A stretch of 64,000 nucleotides of DNA from an uncultured Gammaproteobacteria bacterium (GTDB lineage: Bacteria > Patescibacteriota > Microgenomatia > Levybacterales > GWA1-39-11): assembly GCA_964504535.1 (NCBI GenBank), contig CAZDED010000002.1, positions 82,673-146,672 of the forward strand, written 5' to 3'. A program made the translations under genes and the position numbers. How positions within the stretch are numbered: position 1 is the stretch's first letter; each line of letters opens with the position of its first letter. Of the stretch, positions 3,981-55,910 are shown piece by piece. The notes under the pieces are model-generated. The model made no database searches. It was not told where the DNA came from and saw nothing but the letters and a program-made list of their open reading frames with translations.

Positions 3981-3981
3981 C

Positions 3982-5139
3982 ATGTCAAAGAAATTTTTCC
4001 TCCCATTGTGGATCACAGGTGCTCTGCTTCTGTTCTTCTATTCTTTCACGCAAGTTGATCTTTCCCTTACATTGTCAAAAGCGTCCATATTTCAAACGAT
4101 TGAGAAATCTTTTCAATATGTCGGATGGTTCAATAGACCTGTCTCTACCTATTTATATATAGCGGTTTTTGCAATTTTGTTTTTTCTTTATCTTGCAACC
4201 ATAAGACTTGTCTCAAAAAATAAGCTTTCGAGAAAAAAAATTTGGCTAGCAATATTTATCGTGACTGGTATCCTTACACTTTCCTATAATGCTTTTTCCT
4301 ATGATCTTTTCAATTATGTATTTGACGCAAAAATAGTCACTTTCTACCACCAAAATCCCTATATCCACAAAGCGTTGGATTTTCCAAATGACCCCATGCT
4401 TTCATTCATGAGATGGACTCATCGGGTCTATCCTTATGGTCCAATATGGTTGGGACTTACGATCCCATTGAGTTTTGTAGGGGCAAATATATTTATCGTG
4501 ACTGTTTACCTTTTCAAAATTATGATTGCTTCATTTTTCCTTTTAACAGTGTGGTCTATAGAGCGGATAGGAAAAACCCTGAAATTTGAGAATGTTCTTC
4601 TGCCTGTCGTTGCATTTGCTTTCAATCCATTTGTTCTTAGCGAGAGCTTGGTTAGTGCTCACAATGATATTGTTATGATGGGACTTGCTCTTTATGCAAC
4701 AAGTCTTCTTATGGACAAAAAAACTGTGAAGGGGAGTGTGGTGTATATACTCTCAATAGGTCTGAAATTTGCGACAGCCTTCTCATTTGCAGGATACATA
4801 CTTCTTTTGTTGTTCAAAAAAACGAAATACGTGATTGAGGCAAGTATAATTCTTTCAATAGTAGCCGTCATTGTTGCTTCGATGCGTACGAATTTTCAAC
4901 CGTGGTATCTGTTGTATGTAGTGCCCTTTGCCGTTCTTTTGATTGGTAAAAGATATGCCCGGTACCCTCTGTATATTTTTTCAACCGCTAGTGTAATTTA
5001 TTACATACCATTTCTTTATTCAGGTAACTGGAATGACCCAATACCAATGATTCTTAACACAATCGTTATAGGTGCAACAGTGTTGTCAATTGTTACTATT
5101 CTCATATTTTTTCCTCATTCAAAAAAAGAAACAAACTAG
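3982..5139 (+). CDS. Polytopic membrane protein, possible GT-C-type glycosyltransferase (DUF2029/GT87-like?)
   Basis: 385 aa with 9 or more predicted TM helices. Motifs YDLFNY…HQNPY…YPYGPIW resemble polyprenol-P-sugar-dependent mannosyltransferase-like proteins. Family assignment uncertain. Confidence 0.4.
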   Translation: MSKKFFLPLWITGALLLFFYSFTQVDLSLTLSKASIFQTIEKSFQYVGWFNRPVSTYLYIAVFAILFFLYLATIRLVSKNKLSRKKIWLAIFIVTGILTLSYNAFSYDLFNYVFDAKIVTFYHQNPYIHKALDFPNDPMLSFMRWTHRVYPYGPIWLGLTIPLSFVGANIFIVTVYLFKIMIASFFLLTVWSIERIGKTLKFENVLLPVVAFAFNPFVLSESLVSAHNDIVMMGLALYATSLLMDKKTVKGSVVYILSIGLKFATAFSFAGYILLLLFKKTKYVIEASIILSIVAVIVASMRTNFQPWYLLYVVPFAVLLIGKRYARYPLYIFSTASVIYYIPFLYSGNWNDPIPMILNTIVIGATVLSIVTILIFFPHSKKETN

Positions 5140-5160
5140 ATATTCTGCTACAATAACCAT

Positions 5161-6710: not shown

Positions 6711-8375
6711 ATGAAAACATATCTGAAAAGCTTCATAAAGAAGAACAAATATCTCCTGGTCATCATTCTTCTTTCTATTCTTCCAACAATTCCCTATTTC
6801 ATTACTTCAAATCTGATCCATACACATGACGGGTTAGTGCATCTGCCACGATTGGCTGCTTACTATCATGCATTAACTGAGGGGAGTATTCCTGTCAGAT
6901 TCGCCGGGTATATAAATTACGGATATGGTTTGCCTTTATTCAATTTCATTTACCAATTCCCATATTGGGTAGGTTCTCTCCTTTTGTCGGTTGGATTTGG
7001 ATTGGTTGCTGCTTTTAAAATATCGATAACCCTCAGTTTTCTACTTTCCGGGATATTTATGTTCATGTTCGGGAAAGAATTTTTCAAAGATGATAGACAG
7101 GCACTTTTGGTCGCTGTTTTGTATCAGTTTGCTCCTTTCAGGATGGTAGAACTTCTTGTTAGAGGTAGTTATGGCGAGGTTTATACGTATGCTTTTTTGC
7201 CACTAGTTTTGTATGGTTTGGTAATACTCTCTAAAAACAGAACATTAAAAGGGTTTTTAGTAACGTCTCTTGCAGTTTTTTGCCTCATTGTTTCTCATAA
7301 CTCTGTTTCACTCATGTTTTTTGGAGCAGCATTTTTATTTGTAATTTTTACTTTCAACAATGTAAAAAAAGGTTTATTTGCATTTTTGTCGATGTTTTTG
7401 GGACTTGGGCTGGCCGCATTCTATTGGATGCCCGCGCTTCTTGAGCATAAGTATACATTTGGTGATCTTTTCATGTCCAAATTGTATGAATCATATTTCC
7501 CATCCTTCCAAAATTTCTTTATTCCAAATTTCAACAATAATCCATCACTTCAAACGACTGGAATAACGACATACATCGGACTTATCCAGGGGATAGTTCT
7601 GATATGCGGACTATTTGTTCTTTTATTCAAAAGAAAAAAACTGAAAGAGTATGCTCGTATATTTTATTTTGGGTATGCACTTGTTGCTATCTCTTTTTTC
7701 TTTATGAGTCCTGTATCGAAATTCATTTGGAGCGCTCCAATTGGTGCGATGCTTCGTCAATTTCAATTTCCATGGAGATTTTTGGCGTTGATAGTCCTTT
7801 CAACCTCTTTACTCTCAGTTGGATTGACGACTGTCTCAAAAAGACTTCTCGATAACCGTGTTTACATAAGTATTATACTGTTGACTGTTTTGTCGGTGGC
7901 CTTTTATTGGAAGGGTAGTCTTGGGTTTGATAAGATTAACGAAAAATATTATTGGAATTTTCCACTAACCTCAACTTATTACGGTGAAACAGATGTCATA
8001 TGGTCTGAAGGACCTGCAAAATCATATCCAAAGCAAAGAGTAGAGTTCACAAGCGGAAAAGGCACTATAACCAATTTTGTAAAAAGGAATACTTATCAGT
8101 CATTTGATGCTTTAGCTTTAACTGACTCTGAGATGGTTTCGCATACTCAGTATTTTCCGGGATGGACGGTTAGGATTGATGGTGTAAAAACTCCTATTCA
8201 ATTCCAAAGCGCAAACCATCGTGGTGAGATACTCTTTAACATACCTCAGGGAAATCACAAAGTAGTTCTTCGGTTTGAAGAAAGTAAGATCAGATTGGCT
8301 GCCGATTTTATAACTCTTTGTAGCTTTATAACGTTTTTTGTCCTTGTGTTTTTAAGAAAGAGAATATTTAGATGA
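6711..8375 (+). CDS. Family B: GT-C-like polytopic membrane protein with N-terminal HTHDGxxH motif and C-terminal YFPGW domain (possibly PTPS-related/YfhO-related)
   Basis: 554 aa. HTHDGLVHLPRLAAYY…PVRF…GYGLPLFNFIYQFPY. C-terminus YFPGWTVRIDGVKTPI. Paralogous to 12179, 13723 and 19432. Confidence 0.55.
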   Translation: MKTYLKSFIKKNKYLLVIILLSILPTIPYFITSNLIHTHDGLVHLPRLAAYYHALTEGSIPVRFAGYINYGYGLPLFNFIYQFPYWVGSLLLSVGFGLVAAFKISITLSFLLSGIFMFMFGKEFFKDDRQALLVAVLYQFAPFRMVELLVRGSYGEVYTYAFLPLVLYGLVILSKNRTLKGFLVTSLAVFCLIVSHNSVSLMFFGAAFLFVIFTFNNVKKGLFAFLSMFLGLGLAAFYWMPALLEHKYTFGDLFMSKLYESYFPSFQNFFIPNFNNNPSLQTTGITTYIGLIQGIVLICGLFVLLFKRKKLKEYARIFYFGYALVAISFFFMSPVSKFIWSAPIGAMLRQFQFPWRFLALIVLSTSLLSVGLTTVSKRLLDNRVYISIILLTVLSVAFYWKGSLGFDKINEKYYWNFPLTSTYYGETDVIWSEGPAKSYPKQRVEFTSGKGTITNFVKRNTYQSFDALALTDSEMVSHTQYFPGWTVRIDGVKTPIQFQSANHRGEILFNIPQGNHKVVLRFEESKIRLAADFITLCSFITFFVLVFLRKRIFR

Positions 8376-10507
8376 AAAGAATTTTCCCAATCATAATTCT
8401 GCTTTTTATCTCTGTCTTTTTTTTCTACAAAACATTTCTTTTTTTTGAAGTCCCATTTCCCGGTGATCTTTTAGTTTCGGAGTACGCCCCGTGGAAATAC
8501 GATTCATACTTGGGATACAATCCCGGTTCTTATCCGAATAAAGCCCAGTATTTTGATGTAGCCCGTCAATTGTATCCTTGGAAAATGCTTGCGATTGATC
8601 TACTCAAGCAAGGAACAATTCCCTTATGGAATCCATACAACTTTTCTGGAAGTCCTCTTCTTGCAAATAACCAATCGGGAGTTTTCTACCCTCTAAATCT
8701 CGTTTTATTTTCGGGCTTCAAAGGCTTTTCTTGGAGTATTTATATTTTTTCTCAACCCTTTTTAGCCTCGATTTTTATGTATCATTTTGCAAAGTCACTG
8801 AAGCGCTCGATTGGGGCATGCCTAATCGCTTCTGTCTCTTTTGGATTTTCTCTTTTCATCTCCACTTTTTTGGAATATGGAAATATTGGCCACACGATTC
8901 TCTGGTTGCCTCTTATATTGTTATGTATAGAGAAATTTAAGGATAAAAAACTACTTTTTGGCCCCATCCTTTCGATTCTAATAAGTTTTGTCTTTTTTGC
9001 CGGTCATCTGCAGATAGCCGTATCACTCGTTCTTTTCTCTTGTGTTTATTTATTTGTGACCAATATAAAAAACAAAATGTTACTTTTAAAGGGATTTCTC
9101 TTTATTTTTCTTGGGATACTGCTTTCATCTGTCCAACTGATTCCGACATTAGAACTGTTATCAAATTCAGCAAGAGAAGCGCACGCGCAACACATGATAA
9201 ATGACCTATTTCTTTTGCTACCACAACAATTAATTCTGCTATTTTCGCCGGATACGTACGGGAACCCGGCTACAAGAAATTATTTACTAACTGACACATA
9301 TCCGGGTAACGCTATATATATAGGTATAATACCTCTTATTTTTGCGACCGTTGCAATTCTTGATAAGAAAAGAGATAGAACAACCAATATTTTTATTCTT
9401 TTTACTGTCGCATTTCTTGTTTTATTCATCAAGAATCCAGTTTCAACTGCAATATTCAATCTGTCTATTTTTTCAGCAAGTTCACCCTCTAATTTTTTCT
9501 ATTTGTTAGGATTTTGCATCAGTGTTCTTTGTGCAATTGGAGTAGACGCAAAAAAGGAAACTTTAAAAAAGAATGTGATAACAGTTGGAATAATTTTTCT
9601 TTTGCCTCTTTTGTTCTTTTTATTACACATACTTTTACATATCCCCGTAAATGCAAAACAATTTTCACTAAGCATGGGAATAGTTGCGATAAGTTCTTTA
9701 GCCTTTATTTTATTTAAAGTTATCAAAACCAGACATCTCTGGGTTCTTCCACTGTTAGTACTTACACTTGAGCTTTTTTACTTCTTTATTAAATTCAATC
9801 CCTTTGTTTCAAAAAATTTGATATACCCTAAAAATGATATGATCTCATACATTCAGAAAGAGGCCGGATACAATCGGTTCATTGGTTTTAGGGCAGCATC
9901 GATTGAATCCAACTTTTCAACATTATTTAAAGCATACTCTCCGGACGGATACGATCCGTTATACCCCAAAATTTACAATTCGTATACGAATTCAAAATCC
10001 CGGTCTGATGTGATAATTGATCTTGCCAACAAAAAAATTCTAGATGAGCTTAGTGTCAGATTCATCCTCGACCGGGTGGAAAATGGAGCAGATGAAAAAG
10101 TGTTTGATCCAAATGAATTTTCTATCATTTATACCAATAATTCATGGCGAGTATTTAAAAATAACGATTCCTACCCGAGAGCATATGTCAATGAAAAAGG
10201 TCAAATTACTCAAGCAAGTATCGTTTCGTATACACCTAACAAAGTAGTGATAAATAAAAATGAGGGAGCCGGAACGTTAGTTTTATCAGATACCTATTTC
10301 CCAGGGTGGGAGGGTAGTATTGACGGCGAGAAAAGCGAGATTGTAAAAGTTAACAGTATTTTTAGAGGGATAATAGTTCCTGCGGGGAAGCACACTATTA
10401 TTTTTGAATACAAACCTAAATCTTTCTATTGGGGTGCAATTGTTACTATAATAAGTAGTGCTCTGACTGTTTGTATGTTTGCTTTATTGAAAAGATATTC
10501 AAAATGA
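8372..10507 (+). CDS. YfhO-family membrane protein (family C)
   Basis: 711 aa. N-terminus YPWK…GTIPLWNPYNFSGSPLLANNQSGVFYPLNL, C-terminus YFPGWEGSIDGEKSEI…IFRGIIVPAGKHTI. ATGA overlap with the upstream gene. Confidence 0.65.
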   Translation: MKRIFPIIILLFISVFFFYKTFLFFEVPFPGDLLVSEYAPWKYDSYLGYNPGSYPNKAQYFDVARQLYPWKMLAIDLLKQGTIPLWNPYNFSGSPLLANNQSGVFYPLNLVLFSGFKGFSWSIYIFSQPFLASIFMYHFAKSLKRSIGACLIASVSFGFSLFISTFLEYGNIGHTILWLPLILLCIEKFKDKKLLFGPILSILISFVFFAGHLQIAVSLVLFSCVYLFVTNIKNKMLLLKGFLFIFLGILLSSVQLIPTLELLSNSAREAHAQHMINDLFLLLPQQLILLFSPDTYGNPATRNYLLTDTYPGNAIYIGIIPLIFATVAILDKKRDRTTNIFILFTVAFLVLFIKNPVSTAIFNLSIFSASSPSNFFYLLGFCISVLCAIGVDAKKETLKKNVITVGIIFLLPLLFFLLHILLHIPVNAKQFSLSMGIVAISSLAFILFKVIKTRHLWVLPLLVLTLELFYFFIKFNPFVSKNLIYPKNDMISYIQKEAGYNRFIGFRAASIESNFSTLFKAYSPDGYDPLYPKIYNSYTNSKSRSDVIIDLANKKILDELSVRFILDRVENGADEKVFDPNEFSIIYTNNSWRVFKNNDSYPRAYVNEKGQITQASIVSYTPNKVVINKNEGAGTLVLSDTYFPGWEGSIDGEKSEIVKVNSIFRGIIVPAGKHTIIFEYKPKSFYWGAIVTIISSALTVCMFALLKRYSK

Positions 10508-12201
10508 TAAAGATATTATCTAAATATCAGGGAGTGATGCTTGTGTTTGTTTTTATTTTGGGATTTTTATTGAGATTTAACAATTTAGACAAAATCCCAA
10601 ATGGGTTATATCAAGATGAGACTGCTATCGGATATAACGCCTATTCTATTCTTTCAACAGGAAAAGATGAATATGGTAAGTCCTATCCTGTTTATTTTAA
10701 ATCTTTCGGTGATCAAAAACTTCCGACTTATATTTATATAACTGCAATAAGCGAGAAGATATTTGGTGTCAACACTTTTGCTGTTAGATTTCCGTCTGCC
10801 TTTTTTGGATTTTTGACTGTTGTTGCTTTTTACTTCTTCGTTAAATTATTGACCAAAGACAAAGTAATTGCATTTGTTTCAACGGCTTTACTCTCAATCA
10901 ATCCTTGGAGTCTGGATTATAACCGCGCCACCTTTGAGGTCAGTATTTGCATGTTCCTTTTTGTTTTTGGAGGTTATCTGCTCCTTAAATCATTTGAGAA
11001 TAAAAAGTTTGGGTTGTTTTTGAGTGGCTCAATCCTGTTCATCGTCTGTCTGTACTCCTACAATCTGACAAGACTGCTGTCTCCATTACTGTATGGACTA
11101 ATTTTAGTTATCAACAAAAAACATCTGAGAAACGTGATGAGGGTAGAGTACATAATAACGGTTTTGGTTTCGCTTTTACTTCTTTTGCCATTCGCAACAT
11201 CAATTTTTTCAAGCGGAGGGGCATCATCTGCATCAGGAACCTTTCTCTTCTCAAGTAACGCAGTCAAAGCACCATTGTTAGAATTTCGGAGTTATTTTGT
11301 ATACCACGATTTTTTTGCAAAACTGTTTTTTAACACTTGGGTACTTTTAGGATGGCAATACGTTAACAATATTGTTTCTTATTTCTCAACGCCGTTCTTA
11401 TTTGTCACCGGATCTGCTCATGGTAATCATGGTATCGGTAATGCAGGACAACTATATTTATTTGAGTTTCCACTCGTGATTCTGGGTATTGTGATTGCTT
11501 TGAAGAATAGGCTTCACGGGACTAAATTATTAGTTGCGTGGGGGGTTATTACAGTTCTTGTAGCATCGTTGACACGGGATATACCTCAAGCGACCAGAAG
11601 CATCTTTCTTGTGGTCCCCCTTGAGATATTCTCCGGAGTAGGACTTGTATATTTTTACAAATATGCAAAAACAATCAAACCGTTCTTTCTAAAAAGTATC
11701 GTCTGGATAATTGTTATTGGAGTCTCGCTTTATTCAATTCTATTTTATTTTTCATCTTACTACATTAGATTTCCTATCTATTATGCAAAGCAATGGAGGC
11801 AGCAAGATCAGGAATTAGTAAAGTACTTAGTCTCAGAAGAGAAGAAGTATGATCATGTTATTGTTGATTCAAAATCAGGTTTTATTTATTCTTCATATTT
11901 ATTTTATTCATTGTTTTCTCCGCAGGAATTTCAAAACAGTGTAAAAAGGTTGCCGGATGACAAGGAAGGATTTAGTAAAGTTGCGAGTTTTGGAAAATTT
12001 GAATTTCGGGATGTAGATTGGCAGAATGATATAAATACTCCAAAAACTCTAATTATAACCACGAATAATTTCAGACCAAAAGAAATGCCTGTTGAAAAGT
12101 CATTTAATTATCCGGTACGCCCTGTCGTCCAATCAGTTGGAGAAGTAATCAGTATTTTTCCTGTTACAGATAACGCCTATGAAGTTGTCAAAGCTAAGTA
12201 A
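10504..12201 (+). CDS. Family A: GT-C glycosyltransferase, PMT/ArnT-like (GT39-type)
   Basis: GLYQDETAIGYNAYSIL loop motif, polytopic, ~565 aa. Start set at ATG 10504 (ATGA overlap with the upstream stop) rather than the track's 10471. Confidence 0.65.
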   Translation: MIKILSKYQGVMLVFVFILGFLLRFNNLDKIPNGLYQDETAIGYNAYSILSTGKDEYGKSYPVYFKSFGDQKLPTYIYITAISEKIFGVNTFAVRFPSAFFGFLTVVAFYFFVKLLTKDKVIAFVSTALLSINPWSLDYNRATFEVSICMFLFVFGGYLLLKSFENKKFGLFLSGSILFIVCLYSYNLTRLLSPLLYGLILVINKKHLRNVMRVEYIITVLVSLLLLLPFATSIFSSGGASSASGTFLFSSNAVKAPLLEFRSYFVYHDFFAKLFFNTWVLLGWQYVNNIVSYFSTPFLFVTGSAHGNHGIGNAGQLYLFEFPLVILGIVIALKNRLHGTKLLVAWGVITVLVASLTRDIPQATRSIFLVVPLEIFSGVGLVYFYKYAKTIKPFFLKSIVWIIVIGVSLYSILFYFSSYYIRFPIYYAKQWRQQDQELVKYLVSEEKKYDHVIVDSKSGFIYSSYLFYSLFSPQEFQNSVKRLPDDKEGFSKVASFGKFEFRDVDWQNDINTPKTLIITTNNFRPKEMPVEKSFNYPVRPVVQSVGEVISIFPVTDNAYEVVKAK

Positions 12202-13726
12202 AATAGTACTTTTCCCGATTTTAGCAGGAATTCTTTCAATTCCTTCGATATTTTCTCTCCTAAGACAAGGATTTTTCACTTCCGATGATGGTGGGTGGAT
12301 GATCATTCGATTTGCTGCTTTTTACAGTAGTTTTTCAGATGGGCAATTTCCTGTGAGATTTCTGAAAGGTCTTAATTTCGGATATGGGTATCCGGTAGCC
12401 AATTTTTTGTACCCTGGATTCATGTATATGGCAACTCCATTTCACCTGTTGGGTTTTGGAATCGTAGATAGCATAAAAATAGTAGTAATATTTAGTTTTA
12501 TTTTCTCCTCAGTCTTTACTTTTTTATGGTTAAGAACACTATTTAACAAACTTCCATCACTGATAGGCTCTGTGTTATTTGTCTATACTCCATATCATCT
12601 CTTCGATTTGTATAAGCGGGGGTCAGTTGGAGAAATTGTTTCGCTTACTTTTGTGCCACTGGTTCTTTATGGAATTGAAAAAAGAAATTTTTATGTCATT
12701 TCAATTGCTATATTTTTATTGATTATTTCCCATAATTCCATGGCATTACTATTTTTGCCTTTGATTCTTGCCTATATCTTTATCCGGTATTCTGTTGATA
12801 AGAAATTAATTTTAGGAGTAGGAACTGGTATCGCACTTTCTTCCTTTTTTATATTTCCTGCAGTGCTTGAATTAGGGTATACATATTTTAAAAAGACATC
12901 GATATCAAATCCTTCCGAATATTTTGTTGGGATAGACCTTATTGGGATCATATCTATTCTTCTTCCATTAGCATCACTTGTTGTCTATAGACTGATGAGA
13001 AAAAATAAAAAGGATTCAACTGGGATTATTTTTCTTTTTATTACCGTTTCTTTAATTGGAATATTTCTAAGTACTTCACTAAGTGAGTTTTTGTGGAAAA
13101 CACCGATTGCATCTCTTCTGCAGTTCCCATTTAGAGTACTTGCATTATTACTCGTAAGTAACGCCTTCTTGTCTGCATTCATAGTTAATTTTTTCAAAGG
13201 ATCAATAAGAATTGTTGTTTGTGTAGTTATATTATGCGTGAGTGCATATTCATGTATTAGTTTTCTAAAGCCGGAGGAATTTAATGATATTCCAGATTCG
13301 GTCTATGCAACAAATCCTGCCACAACAACGGTGAAGAATGAATACATGCCAATATGGGTAACCGAATTTCCAGAATCACAGTATGAGCATAAAGTCGAGT
13401 TATTAAATGGAGTAGGGGAGGTTGGCAATCTAATTGAGAAGTCGAATAATATCAGTTTTGATCTGAATAATAATACTGCAACTGAAATAAGACTAAACAC
13501 TGTTTATTATCCTGGGTGGAGGGCGTATGTTGATAATAATGAAGTAAAAATACAGTATATGAATCCTAAAGGGGTTATGGATATCCCTATTGCCGAAGGA
13601 CAAAAAAATATTCGATTTGTTTTTTCAGAAACTCCTGCAAGGCTGATAGCGGATTTGATATCCGGCCTTGCCGTTATTGCTTTGATGTTATACCCTTTTT
13701 GGGTACGAAATAAATTTAAGAAATGA
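12179..13726 (+). CDS. Family B GT-C-like membrane protein (HxD…YxPGW)
   Basis: 515 aa. FFTSDDGGWMIIRF…PVRFLKGLNFGYGYPVANFLYPG. C-terminus VYYPGWRAYVDNNEV. Confidence 0.55.
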   Translation: MKLSKLSKIVLFPILAGILSIPSIFSLLRQGFFTSDDGGWMIIRFAAFYSSFSDGQFPVRFLKGLNFGYGYPVANFLYPGFMYMATPFHLLGFGIVDSIKIVVIFSFIFSSVFTFLWLRTLFNKLPSLIGSVLFVYTPYHLFDLYKRGSVGEIVSLTFVPLVLYGIEKRNFYVISIAIFLLIISHNSMALLFLPLILAYIFIRYSVDKKLILGVGTGIALSSFFIFPAVLELGYTYFKKTSISNPSEYFVGIDLIGIISILLPLASLVVYRLMRKNKKDSTGIIFLFITVSLIGIFLSTSLSEFLWKTPIASLLQFPFRVLALLLVSNAFLSAFIVNFFKGSIRIVVCVVILCVSAYSCISFLKPEEFNDIPDSVYATNPATTTVKNEYMPIWVTEFPESQYEHKVELLNGVGEVGNLIEKSNNISFDLNNNTATEIRLNTVYYPGWRAYVDNNEVKIQYMNPKGVMDIPIAEGQKNIRFVFSETPARLIADLISGLAVIALMLYPFWVRNKFKK

Positions 13727-15426
13727 AAAAAATTCATAAAACTATTCTTATACTTTTCATTATTCTTTTCGGGTTAGGCACAATATTTCCATTGTTTCAT
13801 TCCGGCTTTTTTGAAGTTCATGATAATACGCAGGTCGAAAGGGTATACCAGATGGGAGTTTCACTAGCTGACAAATCATTTCCCGTCCGGTGGGTTCCTG
13901 ATCTTGGTTATGGATATGGCTATCCGATATTCAATTTTTATGCACCCCTCCCATATTATGTGGGGGGAATCCTTTTCATAAGTGGCATTGGAGCTCTTTT
14001 TGCAACAAAGATTATGTTTGGCTTGGGTATATTACTTTCAGGAATTTCTATGTATTTTCTCACAAAGAAATTTTTTGGGGTAGGACCTGGAGTGGTTGGA
14101 AGCGTAATATACATGTACTTTCCATACCACGCGGTTAATATATACGTTAGGGGAGCAGTGGGTGAATTTTTTGCTTATGCTGCTATTCCTCTCATATTTC
14201 TTGGGTTATTCCAATTCGTCGAAAATAGGAAGGCAACCTTAGTCACTTCTGAAAATTTCCGCACGGTCGTTTTGACTTCTTTTGCCATCTTTCTTGTAGC
14301 AATATCCCACAACTTAAGTATCTTTATGTTCCTCATTCTTCTAGTTCCCTTTATTGTAATCAGTTTGTTTGTTATTAGAAATAAAAGAAATTTTCTTCTG
14401 TTATCCGGCACTTCAATCGTTATCGGTTTTATGCTTAGCGCTTTCTATATTCTTCCAGCATTTATGGAAATGTCTTATACCAATGTTGGGTCTCAAGTTG
14501 GAGGAGGGGCATACGTTCCCGACCACTTTGTATGCGTGGGGCAATTTGTAGATAGTATTTGGGGATTTGGAGGATCTGTAAAAGGATGTTTGGATGGGCT
14601 CAGTTTTAGACTTGGGAAAGTAAATATTTTACTTGCTATTTTTGGTGTGGTTTTGTTGATTCACGCTTTTTACCGTAGAAAGATAGAACGGACGGATATG
14701 CTTGCTCTCGTAAGTTTTTTGCTCCTTTGTTGTTCAGTATTTTTGAGTCTTAGTCCCTCAAGATTTGTTTGGGATAGTATTCCATTCATGCAGTATATTC
14801 AATATCCATGGAGATTTTTGAATTTTATCGGACTATTCATCTCAATTATTGCCTCTTATTCTGTATTTAAGATCAGTAAAAACTCTTGGAAAAAAGGAAT
14901 CGTTCTTATGATTTTGATCATTATCCTGACGTTATTTACAAATTTAAAGTTATTCAGCCCTCAGGAATTTAATAATTATTCCGACAGTCACTACACTTCA
15001 CAAAACCATATACGCTTTGACACGTCAAAAATATCAGATGAATACTTGCCCTCTGGTTTTCAGACTCCTTATTCCGCCTACGAATTACCTAGTGCAACGG
15101 TAGAGTTGCTCAAGACAAGTGGAAATGTCGGTGTAATTGCGTATCATACCGGATACCTTAAAGCATCGTATCAGGCTTTGTCCGATGGTGTTATTCATGT
15201 TAACTATGCATACTTCCCGGGATGGCAAGCAAGTGTTAATGGGGAGAAGATGCCAATAGTCCCGACTGCTGATGGAATGAATATATCTGTTAGGAAGGGG
15301 AGTGGACAGTTAGAGCTCAAATTTGTACAGACACCCATCGAAGTTGCCGGAAATACTATTACTATTCTTGCTTTTTTAGTATTGTTACTTGGTATAATAA
15401 AAACCAGTTTGAATAGCAAGAAATAG
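13723..15426 (+). CDS. Family B GT-C-like membrane protein (HxD…YxPGW)
   Basis: 567 aa. FFEVHDNTQVERVYQ…PVRWVPDLGYGYGYPIFNFYAPLPYY. C-terminus AYFPGWQASVNGEKMPI. Confidence 0.55.
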   Translation: MKKIHKTILILFIILFGLGTIFPLFHSGFFEVHDNTQVERVYQMGVSLADKSFPVRWVPDLGYGYGYPIFNFYAPLPYYVGGILFISGIGALFATKIMFGLGILLSGISMYFLTKKFFGVGPGVVGSVIYMYFPYHAVNIYVRGAVGEFFAYAAIPLIFLGLFQFVENRKATLVTSENFRTVVLTSFAIFLVAISHNLSIFMFLILLVPFIVISLFVIRNKRNFLLLSGTSIVIGFMLSAFYILPAFMEMSYTNVGSQVGGGAYVPDHFVCVGQFVDSIWGFGGSVKGCLDGLSFRLGKVNILLAIFGVVLLIHAFYRRKIERTDMLALVSFLLLCCSVFLSLSPSRFVWDSIPFMQYIQYPWRFLNFIGLFISIIASYSVFKISKNSWKKGIVLMILIIILTLFTNLKLFSPQEFNNYSDSHYTSQNHIRFDTSKISDEYLPSGFQTPYSAYELPSATVELLKTSGNVGVIAYHTGYLKASYQALSDGVIHVNYAYFPGWQASVNGEKMPIVPTADGMNISVRKGSGQLELKFVQTPIEVAGNTITILAFLVLLLGIIKTSLNSKK

Positions 15427-15427
15427 T

Positions 15428-16141
15428 ATGAGTAAGCTGTTGCCTGAACTATCTATCTTTTTTCCCTTCTGGAACGAGGAGAAAAATGTAAAACATGTTG
15501 TTGAGAATGCGATACCTGTCGCGCGTGAAGTAGCTGAAAAATGGGAGATCATAATAGTAGATGACGGCTCATCAGACAAGACCTACGCCATAGGTCAAGA
15601 ACTGGCAAAAAAACACGAGAATGTTAAAGTAATAACCCACAATCCTAACCGCGGATATGGAGCAGCTCTTAAAGAAGGATTTGAAAACGCAAAATATGAT
15701 TATGTCGTATTTACTGATGGTGATAGACAGTTTGATTTTGGCGAGGTTAAAAAATTGATAGGTGCCCTTGATGGTGCTGATATTGTCATTGGCTTTAGAA
15801 AAAGAAGAAGAGACAGTATATCAAGACATGTTTTGATGTATCTTCTGAAGTTTTGGGATTATATTTTCTTTAGATTTTACTTCAAAGATATTGACTGTGG
15901 TTTTAAATTATTTACAAGACATGCCCTTGTAGAAATTATGCCACTTAGATCAGAAGGAGCAATGATCACTACAGAAATCCTTGCAAAGGCGACACGAAAG
16001 AAGTTAAAGATAAAGCAGGTAGAAGTTAATCACTATAAAAGAGAATACGGTGCTCAGAGTGGTGCTAATATTGCTGTTGTTATACGCGCTGTTCTGGAAA
16101 GTTTTATATTGTGGTTTGACATCCTCAATAAAAGGATTTAA
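15428..16141 (+). CDS. GT2 polyprenyl-phosphate glycosyltransferase (DPM1/GtrB-like)
   Basis: LSIFFPFWNEE, IIIVDDGSSDKT, FTDGDRQFD and DCGFKLF motifs. 237 aa. Confidence 0.8.
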   Translation: MSKLLPELSIFFPFWNEEKNVKHVVENAIPVAREVAEKWEIIIVDDGSSDKTYAIGQELAKKHENVKVITHNPNRGYGAALKEGFENAKYDYVVFTDGDRQFDFGEVKKLIGALDGADIVIGFRKRRRDSISRHVLMYLLKFWDYIFFRFYFKDIDCGFKLFTRHALVEIMPLRSEGAMITTEILAKATRKKLKIKQVEVNHYKREYGAQSGANIAVVIRAVLESFILWFDILNKRI

Positions 16142-16173
16142 AAAATATTAATGGCAGACAAGGTTAACTTTAT

Positions 16174-17628
16174 ATGGATGAATTCGAGTTGCATGCTATT
16201 GCCACAAAGTCTGTCAAAGGCGTTTTCGCGTTAGTATCACGATCTTTCCTGCTGCAGCTTCTTGGTGTTGCAACAAGTTTTATTCTGACGTTATATCTAG
16301 ATCCAGCAAGCTTTGGCGTATTTTTTGTAGTTTCCTCAATAATTGTCTTTTTTAATTATTTTCAGGACATTGGTCTTGCTGCGTCTTTAATTCAAAAAAA
16401 AGATGAACCAACGATACGTGAACTACGTACGGTATTTTTTATTCAAGAATTACTCGTATTGGCTCTTATTATTCCCGCCATACTGTTCTCAAACTCAATT
16501 GTACATTTCTACAAACTTAATGGTGATGGATACATACTCTATATCTCTTTACTGATTTCATTCTTCCTAACGTCCCTTCGAACAATCCCTACAGTTATTA
16601 TGGAGAGAAAGCTTGACTATACAAAGCTGGTAGTGCCTCAAATTTTAGAAAATCTCACTTACAATGTTTGTCTGATTGTATTTGCTATCGCCGGGTTTAA
16701 GGTGCAGAGCTTTACGATAGCAATTTTAGCCAGAAGTGCGGTTGGTCTTATAGCAACATATGTTGTTTCTCCATGGCCAATCGGGCTTGCATTTGATAGG
16801 CAGAGTCTCAGAAAACTCATCTCATTTGGGATACCATTCCAAACGAACAGTATCCTGGCTTTATTTAAGGATGATTTCAGAACAATTTATCTAGGGAAGG
16901 TTTTACCGATTTCACAACTTGGATATATTGGTTTTGCAGAAAAAATGGCCAACCTTCCCCTGCGGCTTGTCATGGACAACGTTATAAAAGTAACATTTCC
17001 TTCATTTAGTAGGCTTCAGGAGGACAAAGAAGCCTTGAAGTTGGCAATAGAAAAATCTCTTTTTCTTATTTCACTTGCGATATTTCCAATAGCTGTTGGA
17101 ATCATCAGCTACTCTCCATACCTCATGCAGTTCATACCTAAATATCAAAAATGGGAGCCTGCAGTGATATCCATAATGTTTTTCTCGCTTGGGACTGTTC
17201 TTTCCTCGATATCAACTCCACTGACAAATTTTCTCAATGCTATAGGTAAGGTCAAAATAACTCTTTATTTTATGGTTTTTTGGACAATAGCAATTTGGTT
17301 CTTAACGATACCATTGATTCATATGTACGGCTACAACGGAGTTGCAATAGCCTCTTTCCTTGTGTCCTTAACATCTGTGGGAGTATTTTATGTAGCAAAG
17401 AAGCATGTAAAATTTAAGATATTCGGATCCATATATAAGCAGTTCATTGCTGCAGTTGTTATGTACATCTTCGCTTTGGCAACAAGCAGCATGATTAGTT
17501 CACTGGTTATCATGCTTTTGTTCTCAGTTATCTCACTGGTAGTTTATTTTGCTGTAATAATGCTTATTGCCCGGAAAGAATTTCTCAAAACTGCCCGCTT
17601 CGTTTTAAGTTCTGTGAGAAAACATTAA
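16174..17628 (+). CDS. Wzx-type oligosaccharide flippase (MOP superfamily, polysaccharide biosynthesis protein)
   Basis: 484 aa, ~12-14 TM helices. N-terminal VKGVFALVSRSFLLQLLGVATSFIL…YLDPASFGVFFVV is typical of the Polysacc_synt family. Confidence 0.7.
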   Translation: MDEFELHAIATKSVKGVFALVSRSFLLQLLGVATSFILTLYLDPASFGVFFVVSSIIVFFNYFQDIGLAASLIQKKDEPTIRELRTVFFIQELLVLALIIPAILFSNSIVHFYKLNGDGYILYISLLISFFLTSLRTIPTVIMERKLDYTKLVVPQILENLTYNVCLIVFAIAGFKVQSFTIAILARSAVGLIATYVVSPWPIGLAFDRQSLRKLISFGIPFQTNSILALFKDDFRTIYLGKVLPISQLGYIGFAEKMANLPLRLVMDNVIKVTFPSFSRLQEDKEALKLAIEKSLFLISLAIFPIAVGIISYSPYLMQFIPKYQKWEPAVISIMFFSLGTVLSSISTPLTNFLNAIGKVKITLYFMVFWTIAIWFLTIPLIHMYGYNGVAIASFLVSLTSVGVFYVAKKHVKFKIFGSIYKQFIAAVVMYIFALATSSMISSLVIMLLFSVISLVVYFAVIMLIARKEFLKTARFVLSSVRKH

Positions 17629-17646
17629 ATCTGATAAACTACAAAT

Positions 17647-18546
17647 ATGAAGGTAAGTGTGGTGATTTCCGCCTACAATGAAGAGGAAAAGATTGAAAAA
17701 TGTCTTTCCTCTGTGAAAGATATAGCCGATGAAATAATTTTTGTTGATAACTCTTCAACTGATGGAACGGTACGAATTGCTAGAAAATATACTGATAAGG
17801 TTTTTTCGCGCGAAAATAACCCGATGCTCAACGTGAATAAGAATTTCGGTTTTACAAAAGCAACAAAGAATTGGATACTCAGTCTAGATGCAGATGAGCG
17901 GGTAACTCCAGAACTCGCTTCAGAAATCATGCAGTTGTCTGAATCAGAAGATGTAAGAGGTTACTTTATTCCAAGGAAAAACATAATTTTTGGTAAGTGG
18001 ATTCGTCATACCGGCTGGTACCCCGATTATCAACTACGGCTTTTCAGGGCAGACAGTGGAAGGTTTGCGGAAAAACAGGTGCACGAGATGATTTCTCTTG
18101 TTGGTGCTTCAGAGCATCTTGAAAGTCCGATGGAGCATTTGAATTATGAGAATATTACACAGTTTTTAAATAAAATGGTTAAAACCTATACAGTTTCTGA
18201 AGCAGAGAATTTAATAAGTCAGGGATACAAATACAACTCTCTTGATCTTGTTAAGATGCCCCTTTCAGAATTTTTGAAGCGTTATTTTGCGGAAAGTGGA
18301 TATAAGGATGGGATGCATGGATTAGTCCTTTCTCTTCTTCAAGGATTTTATCATTTCGTAGTTTTTCTAAGACTTTGGGAAGCTAATAATTATCCAGATG
18401 AGAAGGATGGCCAAGCATTGCTTTTGGAAGGCAAGAAGATGGTATCTCATGAATTCAAGTATTGGGTTACCCATACTAAGATAGAAAACGAAGCAAACGT
18501 TTTGAAAAAAAATCTGTTAAAAGTAAAAAGAAAAATCCTTCTCTGA
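17647..18546 (+). CDS. GT2 glycosyltransferase (KdtX/WaaE-like subfamily; paralogue of 23392 and 44885)
   Basis: VVISAYNEEEKI…IIFVDNSSTDGT…SLDADERV. Confidence 0.7.
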   Translation: MKVSVVISAYNEEEKIEKCLSSVKDIADEIIFVDNSSTDGTVRIARKYTDKVFSRENNPMLNVNKNFGFTKATKNWILSLDADERVTPELASEIMQLSESEDVRGYFIPRKNIIFGKWIRHTGWYPDYQLRLFRADSGRFAEKQVHEMISLVGASEHLESPMEHLNYENITQFLNKMVKTYTVSEAENLISQGYKYNSLDLVKMPLSEFLKRYFAESGYKDGMHGLVLSLLQGFYHFVVFLRLWEANNYPDEKDGQALLLEGKKMVSHEFKYWVTHTKIENEANVLKKNLLKVKRKILL

Positions 18547-19454
18547 TGTACAAAGTAATCGTTTCAATACTCCATTACAACAATGATCACGATACCCTTT
18601 CGTGTTTGGATTCACTTCTTGCCTTAAATCTTGAAGACATAAAGATAAGTACTTACGTGCTTGATAACGGTTCTAAGAAGGAGCTTGATATAGATCCTTC
18701 AAAATACGACCTTCTGGACCTGACCGTCATAAGAAATCCTAAGAACACCGGATTTACCGGAGGGCATAATATGATCTTTGGTAAAGTTGAAGATAAGGAA
18801 TTCGATTATTTCATGATACTGAACAACGACACGATAGTACATCCGGATCTCATAAAGGAAATGGTTAACACTATACAAAAAAATGGAGTAGGGGCAGTTG
18901 TCCCAAAAATATATTTTACAAAAGGTCATGAGTTTCATAAAGAACGATATAGTGAGAATGATTTAGGGAAAGTTTTCTGGTATGCAGGAGGATACATGGA
19001 TTGGAATCATGTCGTAAGTAAACACAGAGGAGTCGATGAAATAGATCATGGACAATTCGGTGAGGAAGAAGCTATAGGATTTGCTACAGGAGCATGCATT
19101 CTCATGCGGAAAAATCTTTTAAAAAAGATTGGCTTATTTGATGAAAAATATTTCCTTTATTATGAAGATGCAGATCTAACTCAAAGAATCATAAAATCAT
19201 CTCACAAAATATTCTATAACCCCAAAGCTATCCTTTGTCACAATAATGCAGGATCTTCTTCTTCCGGGTCTTCCCTGCACGATTATTATCTTACAAGAAA
19301 TAGGATGTTGTTTGGTATGCATTATGCGCCACTAAAGACCAGATTATTTTTGGTGAAAGAAAGCCTTGTGCTTTTGAAATCAGGTAGGATGTGGCAAAAA
19401 AAAGGCATAAAGGACTACTACTTACACAAATTTGGCAAAGGAAGCTATGAATAG
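18546..19454 (+). CDS. GT2 glycosyltransferase (rhamnosyltransferase/WbbL-like)
   Basis: VIVSILHYNNDHDTLSCLDSL, VLDNGS, ILNNDTIV, YYEDADLTQR. Confidence 0.65.
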   Translation: MYKVIVSILHYNNDHDTLSCLDSLLALNLEDIKISTYVLDNGSKKELDIDPSKYDLLDLTVIRNPKNTGFTGGHNMIFGKVEDKEFDYFMILNNDTIVHPDLIKEMVNTIQKNGVGAVVPKIYFTKGHEFHKERYSENDLGKVFWYAGGYMDWNHVVSKHRGVDEIDHGQFGEEEAIGFATGACILMRKNLLKKIGLFDEKYFLYYEDADLTQRIIKSSHKIFYNPKAILCHNNAGSSSSGSSLHDYYLTRNRMLFGMHYAPLKTRLFLVKESLVLLKSGRMWQKKGIKDYYLHKFGKGSYE

Positions 19455-21099
19455 AATAAGAATTCCTGGTTTTATCCTTGTTATCTTACTTGCAGTTATC
19501 CCTCTTGTTGGTCTTTTGCCTCAAGGACTTGCCGAAACTCATGATGGAATTGATCATGTCGCAAGGGTCGCAAATTTTTATAAAGGACTTTCAGAGGGAG
19601 TCATATTTCCCCGGTGGGGCGAAAATCTCAACTGGGGTTATGGCCATCCAATCCTGATGTTTTTATATCCATTATCCTCATATGTCTCTTCATTTTTTCA
19701 CTTTCTTGGAGCCTCGTATGTTGATTCTATAAAGTTAGTTTTTGGTTTTGGATATATTGCAAGTGGAGTGACGATGTATATATGGGCTAGAAAACAGTTC
19801 AACGAACATTTTGCGATTGCTTCCTCCCTCCTTTATATGTATGCGCCCTATCGTTTTGTCGACCTATATGTACGGGGTGCGATTGGTGAGCATATGGCTT
19901 TTATATTTCCGCCCTTAATACTTTATTTTATTTTTAACAACTTTGAACGTCGAGTTGGGTTAAAAACAACATCTTTTATTGGTGTCAGTATTTCGTTTGC
20001 TTTACTGTTACTTGCCCACAATGCAATAAGTCTCATGTTCATGCCAATTATCGCATGTTATTCATTGGTACTTGCATATTCAAGAAAGGAATATAAATCT
20101 CTGCTGTATATTTTTCTTGCCGTAGTAAATGGTTTTTTGATGTCGGCTTTTTTTACCATTCCAGCATTTCTAGAGGGAAAGTTCACTTTAAGAGATATTG
20201 TTACGGGTGATGAGTATAAAAATCGATTTGTTACCAATCCTTTAACCTTTCTCTATGGAGCTTGGAGTTATGGTATAACAGGACAATTTTCGGTACAAAT
20301 CGGTGTAGCGCATATATGTGGAATTTTGCTTGCACCACTGGTTTTTTTGAAAACAAAAAAGAAGGAAGCTAAATTGATACTTATTATGATCATTTTATTT
20401 TTTGTGTGCTCGTTGTTTTTGATGATTCCTCAATCAGATTTTCTTTATCAGCTCGTAACAACTCTTCAAAAATTTCAGTTTCCGTGGAGATTTTTAACTT
20501 TGACTGTATTCACCAGCTCTGTACTTGGTGCCAGTATCTTTATTGTCATTAAAAATAAAAATGTAAAAAATATTTCTATTGGTTTACTTATTTTTTTATT
20601 ACTGCTATCAACAGTTAGCTATTGGTGGGCTAAATCATACAGGAAGATACCTGATAATTTTTTTGAAACCGTATATAACGGAACTACTGATACGGGTGAA
20701 AGTTCTCCAGTTTGGTCTGTTAGATTCATGGAGAAAAAACCCAGGGCGCATGCAGAAGTTATAAGTGGTAAAGCAATCATTGTTGAAAAGAACCGCAAGA
20801 GTACTACACACATTTACCAAATAACTGCTTTGACTGAATCATCAAGGATAAGAGAGAATACTCTTTATTTTCCTAGTTGGAAAGTTTATATTGATGGTAA
20901 AGAGTCAACTATTCAGTTTCAGGATCCATCGGAACGTGGACTTATCACGTACAATTTGGAAAAAGGATCTCATACTGTTATGGTTGAATTTAGAGACACC
21001 AAGCTGCGTGTTATTTCCAGCATGCTCTCAATTGCATCAGTTTTTCTAACTGCACTTTTAGGATTGTTAATTATTTTTAAATACAAACATGAAAAATAA
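19432..21099 (+). CDS. Family B GT-C-like membrane protein (HxD…YxPGW)
   Basis: 555 aa. AETHDGIDHVARVANFYKGLSEGVIFPRWGENLNWGYGHPILMFLYPL. C-terminus LYFPSWKVYIDGKEST. Confidence 0.55.
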   Translation: MAKEAMNRIRIPGFILVILLAVIPLVGLLPQGLAETHDGIDHVARVANFYKGLSEGVIFPRWGENLNWGYGHPILMFLYPLSSYVSSFFHFLGASYVDSIKLVFGFGYIASGVTMYIWARKQFNEHFAIASSLLYMYAPYRFVDLYVRGAIGEHMAFIFPPLILYFIFNNFERRVGLKTTSFIGVSISFALLLLAHNAISLMFMPIIACYSLVLAYSRKEYKSLLYIFLAVVNGFLMSAFFTIPAFLEGKFTLRDIVTGDEYKNRFVTNPLTFLYGAWSYGITGQFSVQIGVAHICGILLAPLVFLKTKKKEAKLILIMIILFFVCSLFLMIPQSDFLYQLVTTLQKFQFPWRFLTLTVFTSSVLGASIFIVIKNKNVKNISIGLLIFLLLLSTVSYWWAKSYRKIPDNFFETVYNGTTDTGESSPVWSVRFMEKKPRAHAEVISGKAIIVEKNRKSTTHIYQITALTESSRIRENTLYFPSWKVYIDGKESTIQFQDPSERGLITYNLEKGSHTVMVEFRDTKLRVISSMLSIASVFLTALLGLLIIFKYKHEK

Positions 21100-23395
21100 A
21101 CTCCTTCCATACATTGCTATTTTTGTTATATGGATACTTTTTTCGTCGCCATATTTTTTTTCCGGAAAAAGTCCTTTTCCATCTGATTATCAAAATAATT
21201 TTTTTGCGCCGTGGAATGTGTATCCTGGGCATTCAGGTCCCGTTAAAAATAACGCACAACCAGACATAATAACTCAAATTTACCCATGGCGATATTTTGA
21301 CATACAGGAATACAAAAAAGGCATTATCCCTTTCTGGAATCCATTTAGTTTTGCAGGTACTCCCCACTTGGCCAATTATCAGTCCGCGTCTCTTTCTCCA
21401 ATTAATATCTTATTTTTTCTTCCATTAGATTTTATTGATGTCTGGGGTTTGTTGGTTTTATTACAACCGCTACTTGCTGGCCTATGTATGTTTCAACTTT
21501 GCCGGAAGATGAAAGTTTCAAAAGTAGGTAGTATCCTTTCAAGTTTTTCCTTCATGTTTTGTGGGTTTTTGGTTACATGGATGGGGTATGCAACGCTGGG
21601 CTATGCTATTCTCTTTTTACCTTTGGCATATTACTCCATCCTACAGTACACAAGTAGTAGATCTTTGAGATGGCTTATAATTCTTGCTTTTACATTTCCG
21701 CTATCATTTTTTTCAGGTCATTTTCAAATGAGTATATATTTTAGTTTGGGAGTATTCTCTTTTATTTTCTATCATTTACTGTTCACAAAAGAACGGAAGT
21801 TATTTGCAACAGCACTGTTATATTCATTTTTTGGATTGTTTCTTACAATGCCGCAAGTACTTCCATCAATAGAATTTTACTCGTTATCGCCAAGAAGCAA
21901 TCTGTTTCAGAAGATCGAAGCAATACCGTGGAATTATCTCCCAACATTAATATCTCCAGATTTCTATGGTAATCCAGTAACGAGAAATGATTGGTTTGGA
22001 CATTACGCTGAGTGGAGTGGATTTCCTGGAATTGTTGCAGTTGTTTTTTCGATTGCTGCGGTAATTCTTAAAAGGAACCGAACCACTTTGTTTTTTATTA
22101 TCCTTGCTGTTGGATCATTAATGTTAGCCTATGACACACCCCTTCTAACGTTTCTAGTTAATCTAAAACTGCCTGTGTTATCAACGAGCGCAGCAAGCAG
22201 AATAATTGTTTTGTTCAGCTTCTCGATAGCAGTCCTTTCAGGGTTCGGTTTTGACCAAGTGATATCAGTCTATAACAAAGACAAAAGAAAAATACTTCTA
22301 TGGTTAATCGTAAGTCTCGTGCCGGTTGTTGTTGTCTCAATTATTCCATTTCTTAATCTATTGGAAGTTGATAAGAGTCAAATAGCTCAAAAAAACGTAA
22401 TTCTGCCGGTGGCCTTCTTTGGCGTCATTGGAATTGCAACTCTTCTCTTATTAAACATCAAGCATAAATATTCAAAGCTATTTTTTATTTGTTGCGTCCT
22501 TGCCGTAAGTTCATTTGAGATGTACCGGTTTGCTGCAAAATGGCAATCATTTACTCCAAAAAAAGAAGCATATTTACCGGTGCCAATCTCAAAATTTTAT
22601 GGTCAACAAAATAATTATGATAGATTGATTGGATTGTCCGGAGGAGAAGATGCCGTGTATTACAGAATGCCAATTCTTTCCGGATACGATCCTTTATACA
22701 GTGAATCGTATGGAAAATTCGTCCAGTATGTCGGAAGTGGATCCTATAAAAATCCTGAACGGTCGGTTGTGACTTTCCCCCTCAACGGTCGTTATACTCC
22801 TCAAGCGCTCGACCTTCTTGGTGTGAAATATATAGTTCGTAAGGATTCTGATGGGGAAATGGTGTGGGCCTTTCCTTTTAAAAAGTATCCCCCAGAGCAA
22901 TTCACGAAAATATATGATGACAATGGATATGATGTTTTTCTCAATAATAAATCAAGCAAACGTGCTTTCATAGTTTCAGATGTAATTGAGGTTAGTGAAA
23001 AAAATAGAGACAGGTCAATGTTATTTAATTATGATCTATCCAAAACAGCTATTGTTTATGAGAATATAAAACCCTTAGCCAAAACTCAGGGATCGGTAAA
23101 AATAATAAAATATTTATCAAACAGCATAGAAATGGAAGCGCAAACAAATGGGGAATCTTTCTTGGTTCTGACAGACAATTATTACCCAGGATGGAAAGCA
23201 TTTGTTAACGACAAAGAAGTAAAAATATACAAAGCCGATTATACATTCCGGGGAATAGTCATACCGGCAGGGAAAAGCAGTATCGAGTTTTCATTCGTTC
23301 CGCAAACATTCTTAATCGGTACGTACCTGTTCTTAACAGGTATAATGGGTATGGTAGTGGTTTATATAATCAGAAAATTCAAATATATTTCATGA
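21089..23395 (+). CDS. YfhO-family membrane protein (family C)
   Basis: 768 aa. YPWRYFDIQEYKKGIIPFWNPFSFAGTPHLANYQSASLSPINI. C-terminus YYPGWKAFVNDKEVKI…TFRGIVIPAGKSSI. Confidence 0.65.
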   Translation: MKNKLLPYIAIFVIWILFSSPYFFSGKSPFPSDYQNNFFAPWNVYPGHSGPVKNNAQPDIITQIYPWRYFDIQEYKKGIIPFWNPFSFAGTPHLANYQSASLSPINILFFLPLDFIDVWGLLVLLQPLLAGLCMFQLCRKMKVSKVGSILSSFSFMFCGFLVTWMGYATLGYAILFLPLAYYSILQYTSSRSLRWLIILAFTFPLSFFSGHFQMSIYFSLGVFSFIFYHLLFTKERKLFATALLYSFFGLFLTMPQVLPSIEFYSLSPRSNLFQKIEAIPWNYLPTLISPDFYGNPVTRNDWFGHYAEWSGFPGIVAVVFSIAAVILKRNRTTLFFIILAVGSLMLAYDTPLLTFLVNLKLPVLSTSAASRIIVLFSFSIAVLSGFGFDQVISVYNKDKRKILLWLIVSLVPVVVVSIIPFLNLLEVDKSQIAQKNVILPVAFFGVIGIATLLLLNIKHKYSKLFFICCVLAVSSFEMYRFAAKWQSFTPKKEAYLPVPISKFYGQQNNYDRLIGLSGGEDAVYYRMPILSGYDPLYSESYGKFVQYVGSGSYKNPERSVVTFPLNGRYTPQALDLLGVKYIVRKDSDGEMVWAFPFKKYPPEQFTKIYDDNGYDVFLNNKSSKRAFIVSDVIEVSEKNRDRSMLFNYDLSKTAIVYENIKPLAKTQGSVKIIKYLSNSIEMEAQTNGESFLVLTDNYYPGWKAFVNDKEVKIYKADYTFRGIVIPAGKSSIEFSFVPQTFLIGTYLFLTGIMGMVVVYIIRKFKYIS

Positions 23396-55850: not shown

Positions 55851-55910
55851 TGACAATAACCGATAATAGCATATTTACAATCTAAATAAAAATGAGTAAT
55901 ATCTATTATC

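Follow-up and report, generated by a model that had tools for sequence, protein, structure and literature searches.

The DNA described here (contig CAZDED010000002.1 of assembly GCA_964504535.1, a stretch of 64 kb referred to as the window) is a surface-glycan island of a Microgenomates-type bacterium of the candidate phyla radiation (CPR), and it carries four paralogous open reading frames (ORFs), B1 to B4, together termed family B, which are predicted to encode glycosyltransferases of the GT-C type (Table 1). The four genes lie within a long, tightly packed array of same-strand genes with a GC content of about 35%. A preliminary description of this DNA had placed ORFs of 515-567 aa at positions 6711, 12179, 13723 and 19432 and had grouped their products into a four-member family of membrane proteins; the coordinates and lengths were confirmed, and the grouping was borne out by pairwise BLASTP comparisons, in which the proteins aligned over nearly their full length with 26-31% identity and E values of 2e-43 to 9e-77, far above chance, indicating that B1-B4 are true paralogs. 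For B4, the TTG at 19432 is a less likely start than an ATG at 19447, which shares bases with the stop codon of the gene before it (ATGAATAG; region 19432-19454); the exact TTG-started product is missing from the public protein collection.

Table 1. Coordinates of the family B genes, of the mapped parts of B1, and of neighbouring genes (positions are those of the window).
Feature	Position	Strand	Basis or remark
B1, family B paralog, 554 aa, predicted PF10131-type GT-C glycosyltransferase	6711..8375	+	
B1 first extracytoplasmic loop, residues 34-81	6810..6953	+	After TM1; D40, R47, R63, GYGxP
B1 C-terminal extracytoplasmic beta-sandwich, 8 strands, residues 444-522	8040..8276	+	Carries YFPGW
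B1 C-terminal transmembrane anchor, residues 526-547	8286..8351	+	AlphaFold2 helix; hydropathy peak 527-550
B2, family B paralog, 515 aa	12179..13726	+	
B3, family B paralog, 567 aa	13723..15426	+	Start overlaps B2 stop
B4, family B paralog, 555 aa	19432..21099	+	Counted from TTG start
GT2 of upstream block	3210-3980	+	Pfam
MptA_B-like GT-C	3982-5139	+	Pfam, precomputed PF26314
PMT_2 GT-C directly before B1	5161-6708	+	Pfam; block 3210..6708 conserved
Y1, YfhO-family GT-C	8372..10507	+	PF09586, E 3e-27; start overlaps B1 stop (8372/8375)
PMT_2 GT-C between Y1 and B2	10471..12201	+	PF13231, PF02366; position conserved
GT2, candidate polyprenyl-phosphate sugar synthase, right after B3	15428..16141	+	PF00535
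Wzx-like (Polysacc_synt_3) flippase candidate	16174..17628	+	PF13440, E 3e-46
Y2, YfhO-family GT-C	21089..23395	+	PF09586, E 3e-18; 11-nt overlap with B4 stop (21089/21099)

The best Pfam match of all four ORFs was PF10131 (PTPS_related), with scores of 59.2 bits for B1, 19.2 for B2, 36.3 for B3 and 36.2 for B4 (gathering score, 26.4 bits), and the homologs of family B in public databases bear the same annotation. The PTPS-related family, named as an alternative in the preliminary description, proved to be the correct one. Despite its low score, B2 is, from sequence comparison, an unambiguous full-length homolog of the other three, being 30% identical to B1 from end to end (E 3e-67). As whole proteins, B1-B4 gave no match to PF09586 (YfhO; gathering score, 28.5 bits) at E <= 0.01, while neighbouring ORFs did, and they did not match PMT/PMT_2 (PF02366, PF13231), in contrast to eight further ORFs of the window. 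Hidden Markov model (HMM) matches of B1-B4 to STT3 or ArnT were likewise not found, and the NCBIfam search of family B gave no meaningful match. Together, the earlier suggestion of a distinct GT-C-type family is upheld insofar as the four proteins are by HMM neither PF09586 nor PMT/GT39 members, but the family was already catalogued: PF10131 appears under the GT-C clan CL0111, as 'function unknown' (PMC7801869), and B1-B4 belong to this known and very common family, not to a new type of system.

Residue conservation was followed in a family alignment of 259 sequences, comprising cluster representatives and the genes of related loci, with ORF 6711 providing the numbering. The residues invariant in B1-B4 are D40, R47, R63, G71-Y72-G73, P75 and F79 in the N-terminal part; K103, R151-G152, G155-E156, H196-N197, E245, Q352, P354 and R356 in the core; and Y481, P483 and W485 in the C-terminal domain. 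Across the whole alignment, D40 is present at 253/253 non-gap positions and W485 in all 259 members, followed by G73 (258/259), H196 (257/259), an acidic residue (E or D) at position 245 (256/259), P483 (255/259), R151 (254/259), P75 (253 members), R63 (250/259), R356 (248/259), R47 (246/259) and K103 (243/259). The first-loop motif noted earlier is thus real in its D40/R63/GYGxP core, but the histidines of its HTHDG element vary, the first (H37) occurring in 75/259 members and the second (H39) in 175/259, and the conserved core of the motif is Asp and Arg, not His and Asp. The metal site that had been proposed for the loop is unsupported as stated, Asp alone being invariant, and a His-based site was rejected because H37 and H39 vary in this way. 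D40 sits nine residues past the first transmembrane (TM) helix (TM1, residues 13-31), on the outer side when the N-terminus is inside, and it matches the GT-C superfamily trait of a conserved acidic residue in the external loop just past TM1. The catalytic Asp of several solved GT-C enzymes is found after TM1 (PMC11127046), and by analogy D40 is a candidate catalytic Asp.

ORF 6711 was modelled with AlphaFold2 from a 37-sequence alignment (mean predicted local distance difference test score 86.4, predicted template modelling score 0.89). The helices of the model, taken together with hydropathy and the distribution of charge, place the N-terminus inside and give 11 core TM helices and a C-terminal anchor helix, 12 in all, close to the 11 or so helices counted previously. 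The C-terminal beta-rich domain with the (Y/F)FPGW motif, also described before, was recovered as an eight-strand sandwich of a type known from carbohydrate enzymes, containing the nearly universal P483 and W485, and the succession of a Y-F/Y-P-G-W beta domain and a terminal TM helix is that of YfhO proteins. All invariant polar residues map to outward loops or to the outer ends of helices in the model and topology. The core could be superimposed on solved GT-C enzymes, with similarity scores of 21.3 for AglB, 19.6 for STT3B, 19.3 for both AftD and AftA, 19.0 for Pmt4, 17.6 for ALG12, 16.8 for ArnT and 16.2 for PglB; the alignment with AftD was the longest, at 391 residues, and a domain of AftD was also the best structural match of the C-terminal beta-sandwich.

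The relationship of family B to YfhO was apparent in both the membrane core and the C-terminal domain. Alignment of the family B core with that of the window YfhO proteins by hhalign gave a probability of 99.3% (E 2.9e-20, 343 columns), with D40 aligned to D32, which is invariant in the window YfhO proteins, and H196 to the YfhO-invariant H212; BLASTP independently matched residues 112-243 of B1 to residues 131-260 of YfhO (E 1e-7). On these comparisons, the TM cores of the two groups are homologous. The isolated C-terminal 120 residues matched PF09586 positions ~760-829 of 835 (E 0.01, 1.2e-7, 3.4e-5 and 0.0086 for B1 to B4), the B2 segment alone scoring above the gathering threshold, and in BLASTP comparisons the C-termini of family B matched those of the YfhO proteins in the window (E 8e-8 and 1e-6), which confirms the common C-terminal domain proposed in the preliminary description. 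The YfhO N-terminal NP...ANxQ signature, which had been reported as missing from family B, is indeed absent from the alignments: all three YfhO proteins of the window carry the long first loop YPW...WNP...G.P.LANxQS without variation, and in its place family B has D...R...P(V)R...GYGxP. Family B is also ~150-250 residues shorter than the window YfhO proteins, the missing stretch lying before the beta domain. The earlier separation from YfhO therefore applies to the full-length HMMs, but since the TM cores are homologous the two groups are not independent, and family B is best described, on sequence grounds, as a shorter sister of YfhO. The terminal TM helix is kept in Y1, Y2 and all four family B proteins, unlike in the third YfhO protein of the window (25518-27758), which stops just after the beta-sandwich ('...VQFKDNLF'); the gene that follows it begins one base past its stop.

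The neighbourhood of family B is dominated by genes for glycan synthesis. The GT2 immediately after B3 has as its best solved relatives ArnC (9bhc, 4e-16), DPMS (5mlz, 4e-13) and GtrB (5ekp, 9e-11). It is 237 aa long, and the match is to only the catalytic part (residues 6-210) of these 320-370 aa relatives; the membrane helices of the latter are probably missing from it, and it may depend on another membrane protein as partner. Taken with the adjoining Wzx-like flippase, one of two in the window (16174 and 47719), this ArnC/DPMS/GtrB-like GT2 makes a context in keeping with glycosylation outside the cytoplasm from polyprenyl-phosphate sugars. The window has at least 17 GT-C genes (four PF10131, three YfhO, eight PMT_2, one GT87 and one MptA_B-like), together with about ten GT2 and three GT4 glycosyltransferases and genes for sugar epimerases, dehydratases, a DegT aminotransferase, GNAT and MBOAT proteins and methyltransferases. 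Five further large ORFs (32367-34322, 59444-61579, 40841-42106, 52887-54380 and, on the minus strand, 54363-55856), encoding 421-711 aa, have no significant Pfam match and show weak EpsG or other sub-threshold matches alone; they may represent additional divergent GT-C or polymerase-like membrane proteins. The small ORFs between 364 and 3110, checked for a clue to the acceptor, had no Pfam match, and nothing in them was obviously Ser/Thr-rich or pilin-like.

Relatives of family B are abundant. A family B profile retrieved 21,487 representatives of clusters made at 50% identity when the limit was E <= 1e-3; a limit of E <= 1e-30 left 6,373. They are mostly of 530-580 aa, matching end to end, and 556 relatives were confirmed in a collection of species-representative genomes. 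The window itself has a match in an ENA metagenome contig of 205 kb. The informative titles among the relatives are Levyibacteriota, Gottesmanbacteria, Woesebacteria, Roizmanbacteria, Parcubacteria and Patescibacteria, and related complete or near-complete genomes measure roughly 0.8-1.2 Mb. Many TPA_asm records of metagenome-assembled genomes titled 'uncultured Gammaproteobacteria bacterium' (L005-L009 and others, L009 being 99% identical to the window) have the locus that is also seen in records titled Levyibacteriota or Gottesmanbacteria, and the taxonomy in the Gammaproteobacteria titles seems to be a placeholder or an error. Single relatives occurred under the record titles Pacearchaeota archaeon (L056; 47% identity, same synteny) and Limisphaerales (L064; 36%), for which binning errors or lateral transfer are possible explanations.

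The order of the genes is conserved. The series GT2-MptA_B-PMT_2-B-YfhO-PMT-B-B-GT2-flippase-GT2 recurs where the B1 orthologs are only ~50% identical, and in the long order, which spans 3210-25518 in the window, it continues after the flippase as GT2-GT2-B-YfhO-GT2-GT4-YfhO. The long order is kept in Levybacteria- and Gottesmanbacteria-type genomes at 42-50% ortholog identity (loci L003-L083); its upstream part, GT2-MptA_B-PMT_2-B-YfhO, is found in most related loci, GT2-flippase-GT2 follows the B-B pair in L003, L078, L081 and L083, and a B4-Y2-type pair also occurs in L072 and L077. Positional orthologs share 50% identity for B1, 47% for B2 (L003) and 42.5% for B3 (L003), as against 26-33% between paralog types, which indicates that the paralogs are ancient and non-redundant. 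Across 81 related loci, a YfhO gene lies directly 3' of 59/83 B genes with enough downstream sequence, a fraction that is a biased estimate because B1 orthologs dominate the sample; stop and start codons usually overlap at these B-YfhO junctions, as they do at both junctions in the window. This pairing suggests functional or physical coupling. In-frame fusions are found in metagenomes (proteins P0127, P0129, P0132, P0136 and P0223), including B-B tandems of 1093 and 1116 aa, multi-B proteins reaching 3329 aa and a single B-PMT protein, but a B-YfhO fusion, sought among them as Rosetta-stone evidence for the gene pair, was not found as a clean case.

Taken together, B1-B4 are likely to be inner-membrane GT-C glycosyltransferases of PF10131 that transfer polyprenyl-phosphate sugars to a surface glycan or glycoprotein. 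This reading builds on the homology, fold, topology, conservation pattern and gene context of family B, and in it the cytoplasmic GT2 would load a sugar onto polyprenyl phosphate, the Wzx-like flippase would bring the loaded lipid across to the outer face, and each family B enzyme would move the sugar to a specific position of the growing glycan or glycoprotein. The use of a donor linked to a lipid phosphate would be in keeping with the adjoining GT2 and flippase genes. D40, because the catalytic Asp of several solved GT-C enzymes likewise follows TM1, would serve as the catalytic base; the outer-face ring of invariant Arg, Lys and His would bind the phosphate of the lipid-linked donor; and the extracytoplasmic beta-sandwich would bind or position the acceptor glycan. 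Since the four paralogs are old and have been kept separately, each probably makes a different linkage, and family B would belong to a conserved assembly line that comprises at least 17 GT-C enzymes. Several points weigh against this interpretation. B2 falls short of the PF10131 gathering score passed by B1, B3 and B4, and only positions ~1-324 of the 621 in the PF10131 model, corresponding to the TM core, are matched in any of the four ORFs; instead of following the model to its end, the C-terminal 120 residues fit the end of PF09586. Searches of the PDB by sequence, both with the family B profile and with a window YfhO protein, returned no relative, leaving no experimentally solved close relative for comparison. 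In the literature, no biochemical characterisation of PF10131 was found, PMC7801869 being the lone substantive mention, and the preliminary description was right to call the family biochemically uncharacterised. Confidence in the model is low at residues 72-78 (the GYGxP loop) and 419-439; the invariant polar residues would, judging from topology only, cluster in a single pocket; and nothing in the present data points to either the donor sugar or the acceptor.

A more elaborate proposal is that the proteins act as obligate hetero-oligomeric GT-C complexes, each B protein with its downstream YfhO and B2 with B3, within the extracytoplasmic line of at least 17 enzymes, building a large and hitherto undescribed coat of surface glycan or glycoprotein in Microgenomates (CPR) bacteria. 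Hetero-oligomeric GT-C enzymes have precedents in Pmt1-Pmt2 and EmbA-EmbB, and hints in this direction come from the B-YfhO pairs (59/83), the overlapping codons, the B-B fusions and a gene order kept at 42-50% identity; the proposal is nonetheless tentative and rather unlikely. By analogy, such an assembly line may be a bacterial counterpart of the ALG pathway of the endoplasmic reticulum lumen or of mycobacterial arabinan and lipoarabinomannan synthesis.

Among explanations that depart from the assignment as PF10131 transferases, the one that survives best, though improbable, is that B1-B4 are divergent YfhO enzymes adding N-acetylglucosamine (GlcNAc) or glucose to teichoic acids or Ser/Thr-rich proteins. 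The homologous TM core, the BLASTP match within it, and the common C-terminal domain and terminal helix all agree with such an origin, but the full-length proteins find PF10131 and not PF09586, are markedly shorter than the window YfhO proteins and have a different loop in place of YPW...WNP...LANxQS; the B and YfhO genes, moreover, form a conserved side-by-side pair, which argues that the two are not interchangeable, and teichoic-acid synthesis genes were not seen in the 64-kb window. Another reading of family B is that of a non-catalytic partner with a GT-C fold, scaffolding or regulating the YfhO enzyme encoded directly downstream. PIG-U/GAB1, a GT-C-fold subunit of the glycosylphosphatidylinositol transamidase, is a precedent for a partner of this kind, but an Asp after TM1 and outward Arg and His residues invariant across 259 members are what an active GT-C site would show, neither B2 nor B3 has a YfhO gene directly downstream, and B-B fusions occur without YfhO, which makes this explanation somewhat less probable still. 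There is yet less reason to regard family B as enzymes that polymerise or ligate glycans (Wzy-, EpsG- or O-antigen-ligase-like) instead of single-sugar transferases: Wzx-type flippases are nearby, but the sole HMM support is a weak EpsG match of B2 (E 0.0016), which is below the cut-off. A kinship with 6-pyruvoyl-tetrahydropterin synthase in pterin metabolism, prompted by the historical Pfam name alone, is scarcely credible and was rejected on fold and context, the proteins having the fold of a 12-TM GT-C membrane protein, no PTPS domain being detected by Pfam, and the neighbourhood being entirely one of glycan synthesis; the name is a historical misnomer.

With the four proteins read as likely PF10131 glycosyltransferases, the results amount to a refined annotation, not to the discovery of a new type of system. 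PF10131 is among the larger GT-C families without an assigned function, with more than 6000 representatives at E <= 1e-30 sharing the architecture described here, and it can now be placed beside YfhO and AftD, with a likely catalytic Asp and candidate phosphate-binding residues named as targets. What is added is the link between YfhO, AftD and PF10131, a corrected set of conserved residues, and a large GT-C locus with B-YfhO pairs and B-B fusions. That in a CPR bacterium with a small genome a single surface-glycan island takes up at least 64 kb and contains 17 or more genes of GT-C type suggests an elaborate and unstudied cell-surface glycan, which could matter for the host attachment of these episymbiotic bacteria; literature searches that paired CPR or Patescibacteria with either GT-C or YfhO found no reports.

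Among known systems, the enzymes of GT-C_A fold (AglB/STT3/PglB, ArnT and PMT) share 8-14% identity with family B, which has neither the WWDYG-containing domain of the oligosaccharyltransferases nor the MIR domain of PMT. The mycobacterial arabinofuranosyltransferase AftD, also a GT-C enzyme (PDB 6w98/6wbx), has a plan like that of family B, with an 11-TM GT-C core, periplasmic beta-sandwich/carbohydrate-binding module domains and a re-entry into the membrane (bioRxiv 10.1101/2019.12.22.885152). The two share 11-14% identity with no significant match at the sequence level, and AftD, unlike family B, is ~1400 aa long and has three carbohydrate-binding modules, one additional soluble GT-C domain and a further four helices at the C-terminus. 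Within its own Pfam family, family B matches the first half of the PF10131 model, whereas its C-terminus resembles the end of YfhO. YfhO enzymes move sugars from undecaprenyl-phosphate-sugar donors to teichoic acids or Ser/Thr-rich proteins (PMC8035078, PMC12041528); the PF09586 set includes the YfhO proteins of B. subtilis and S. aureus, which are lipoteichoic acid GlcNAc transferases, that of L. monocytogenes, which acts on wall teichoic acid, and the streptococcal PgtC2, PgfM1 and PgfM2, which are involved in protein O-glycosylation. From these, family B differs in being shorter and in having neither the WNP...LANxQS loop nor the extra region before the beta-sandwich, and it resembles them in its core, in the Asp after TM1, in the His (H196/H212), in the Y-F/Y-P-x-W sandwich and terminal TM helix, and in the three-component logic by which a GT2 and a flippase accompany the GT-C enzyme (PMC8035078).

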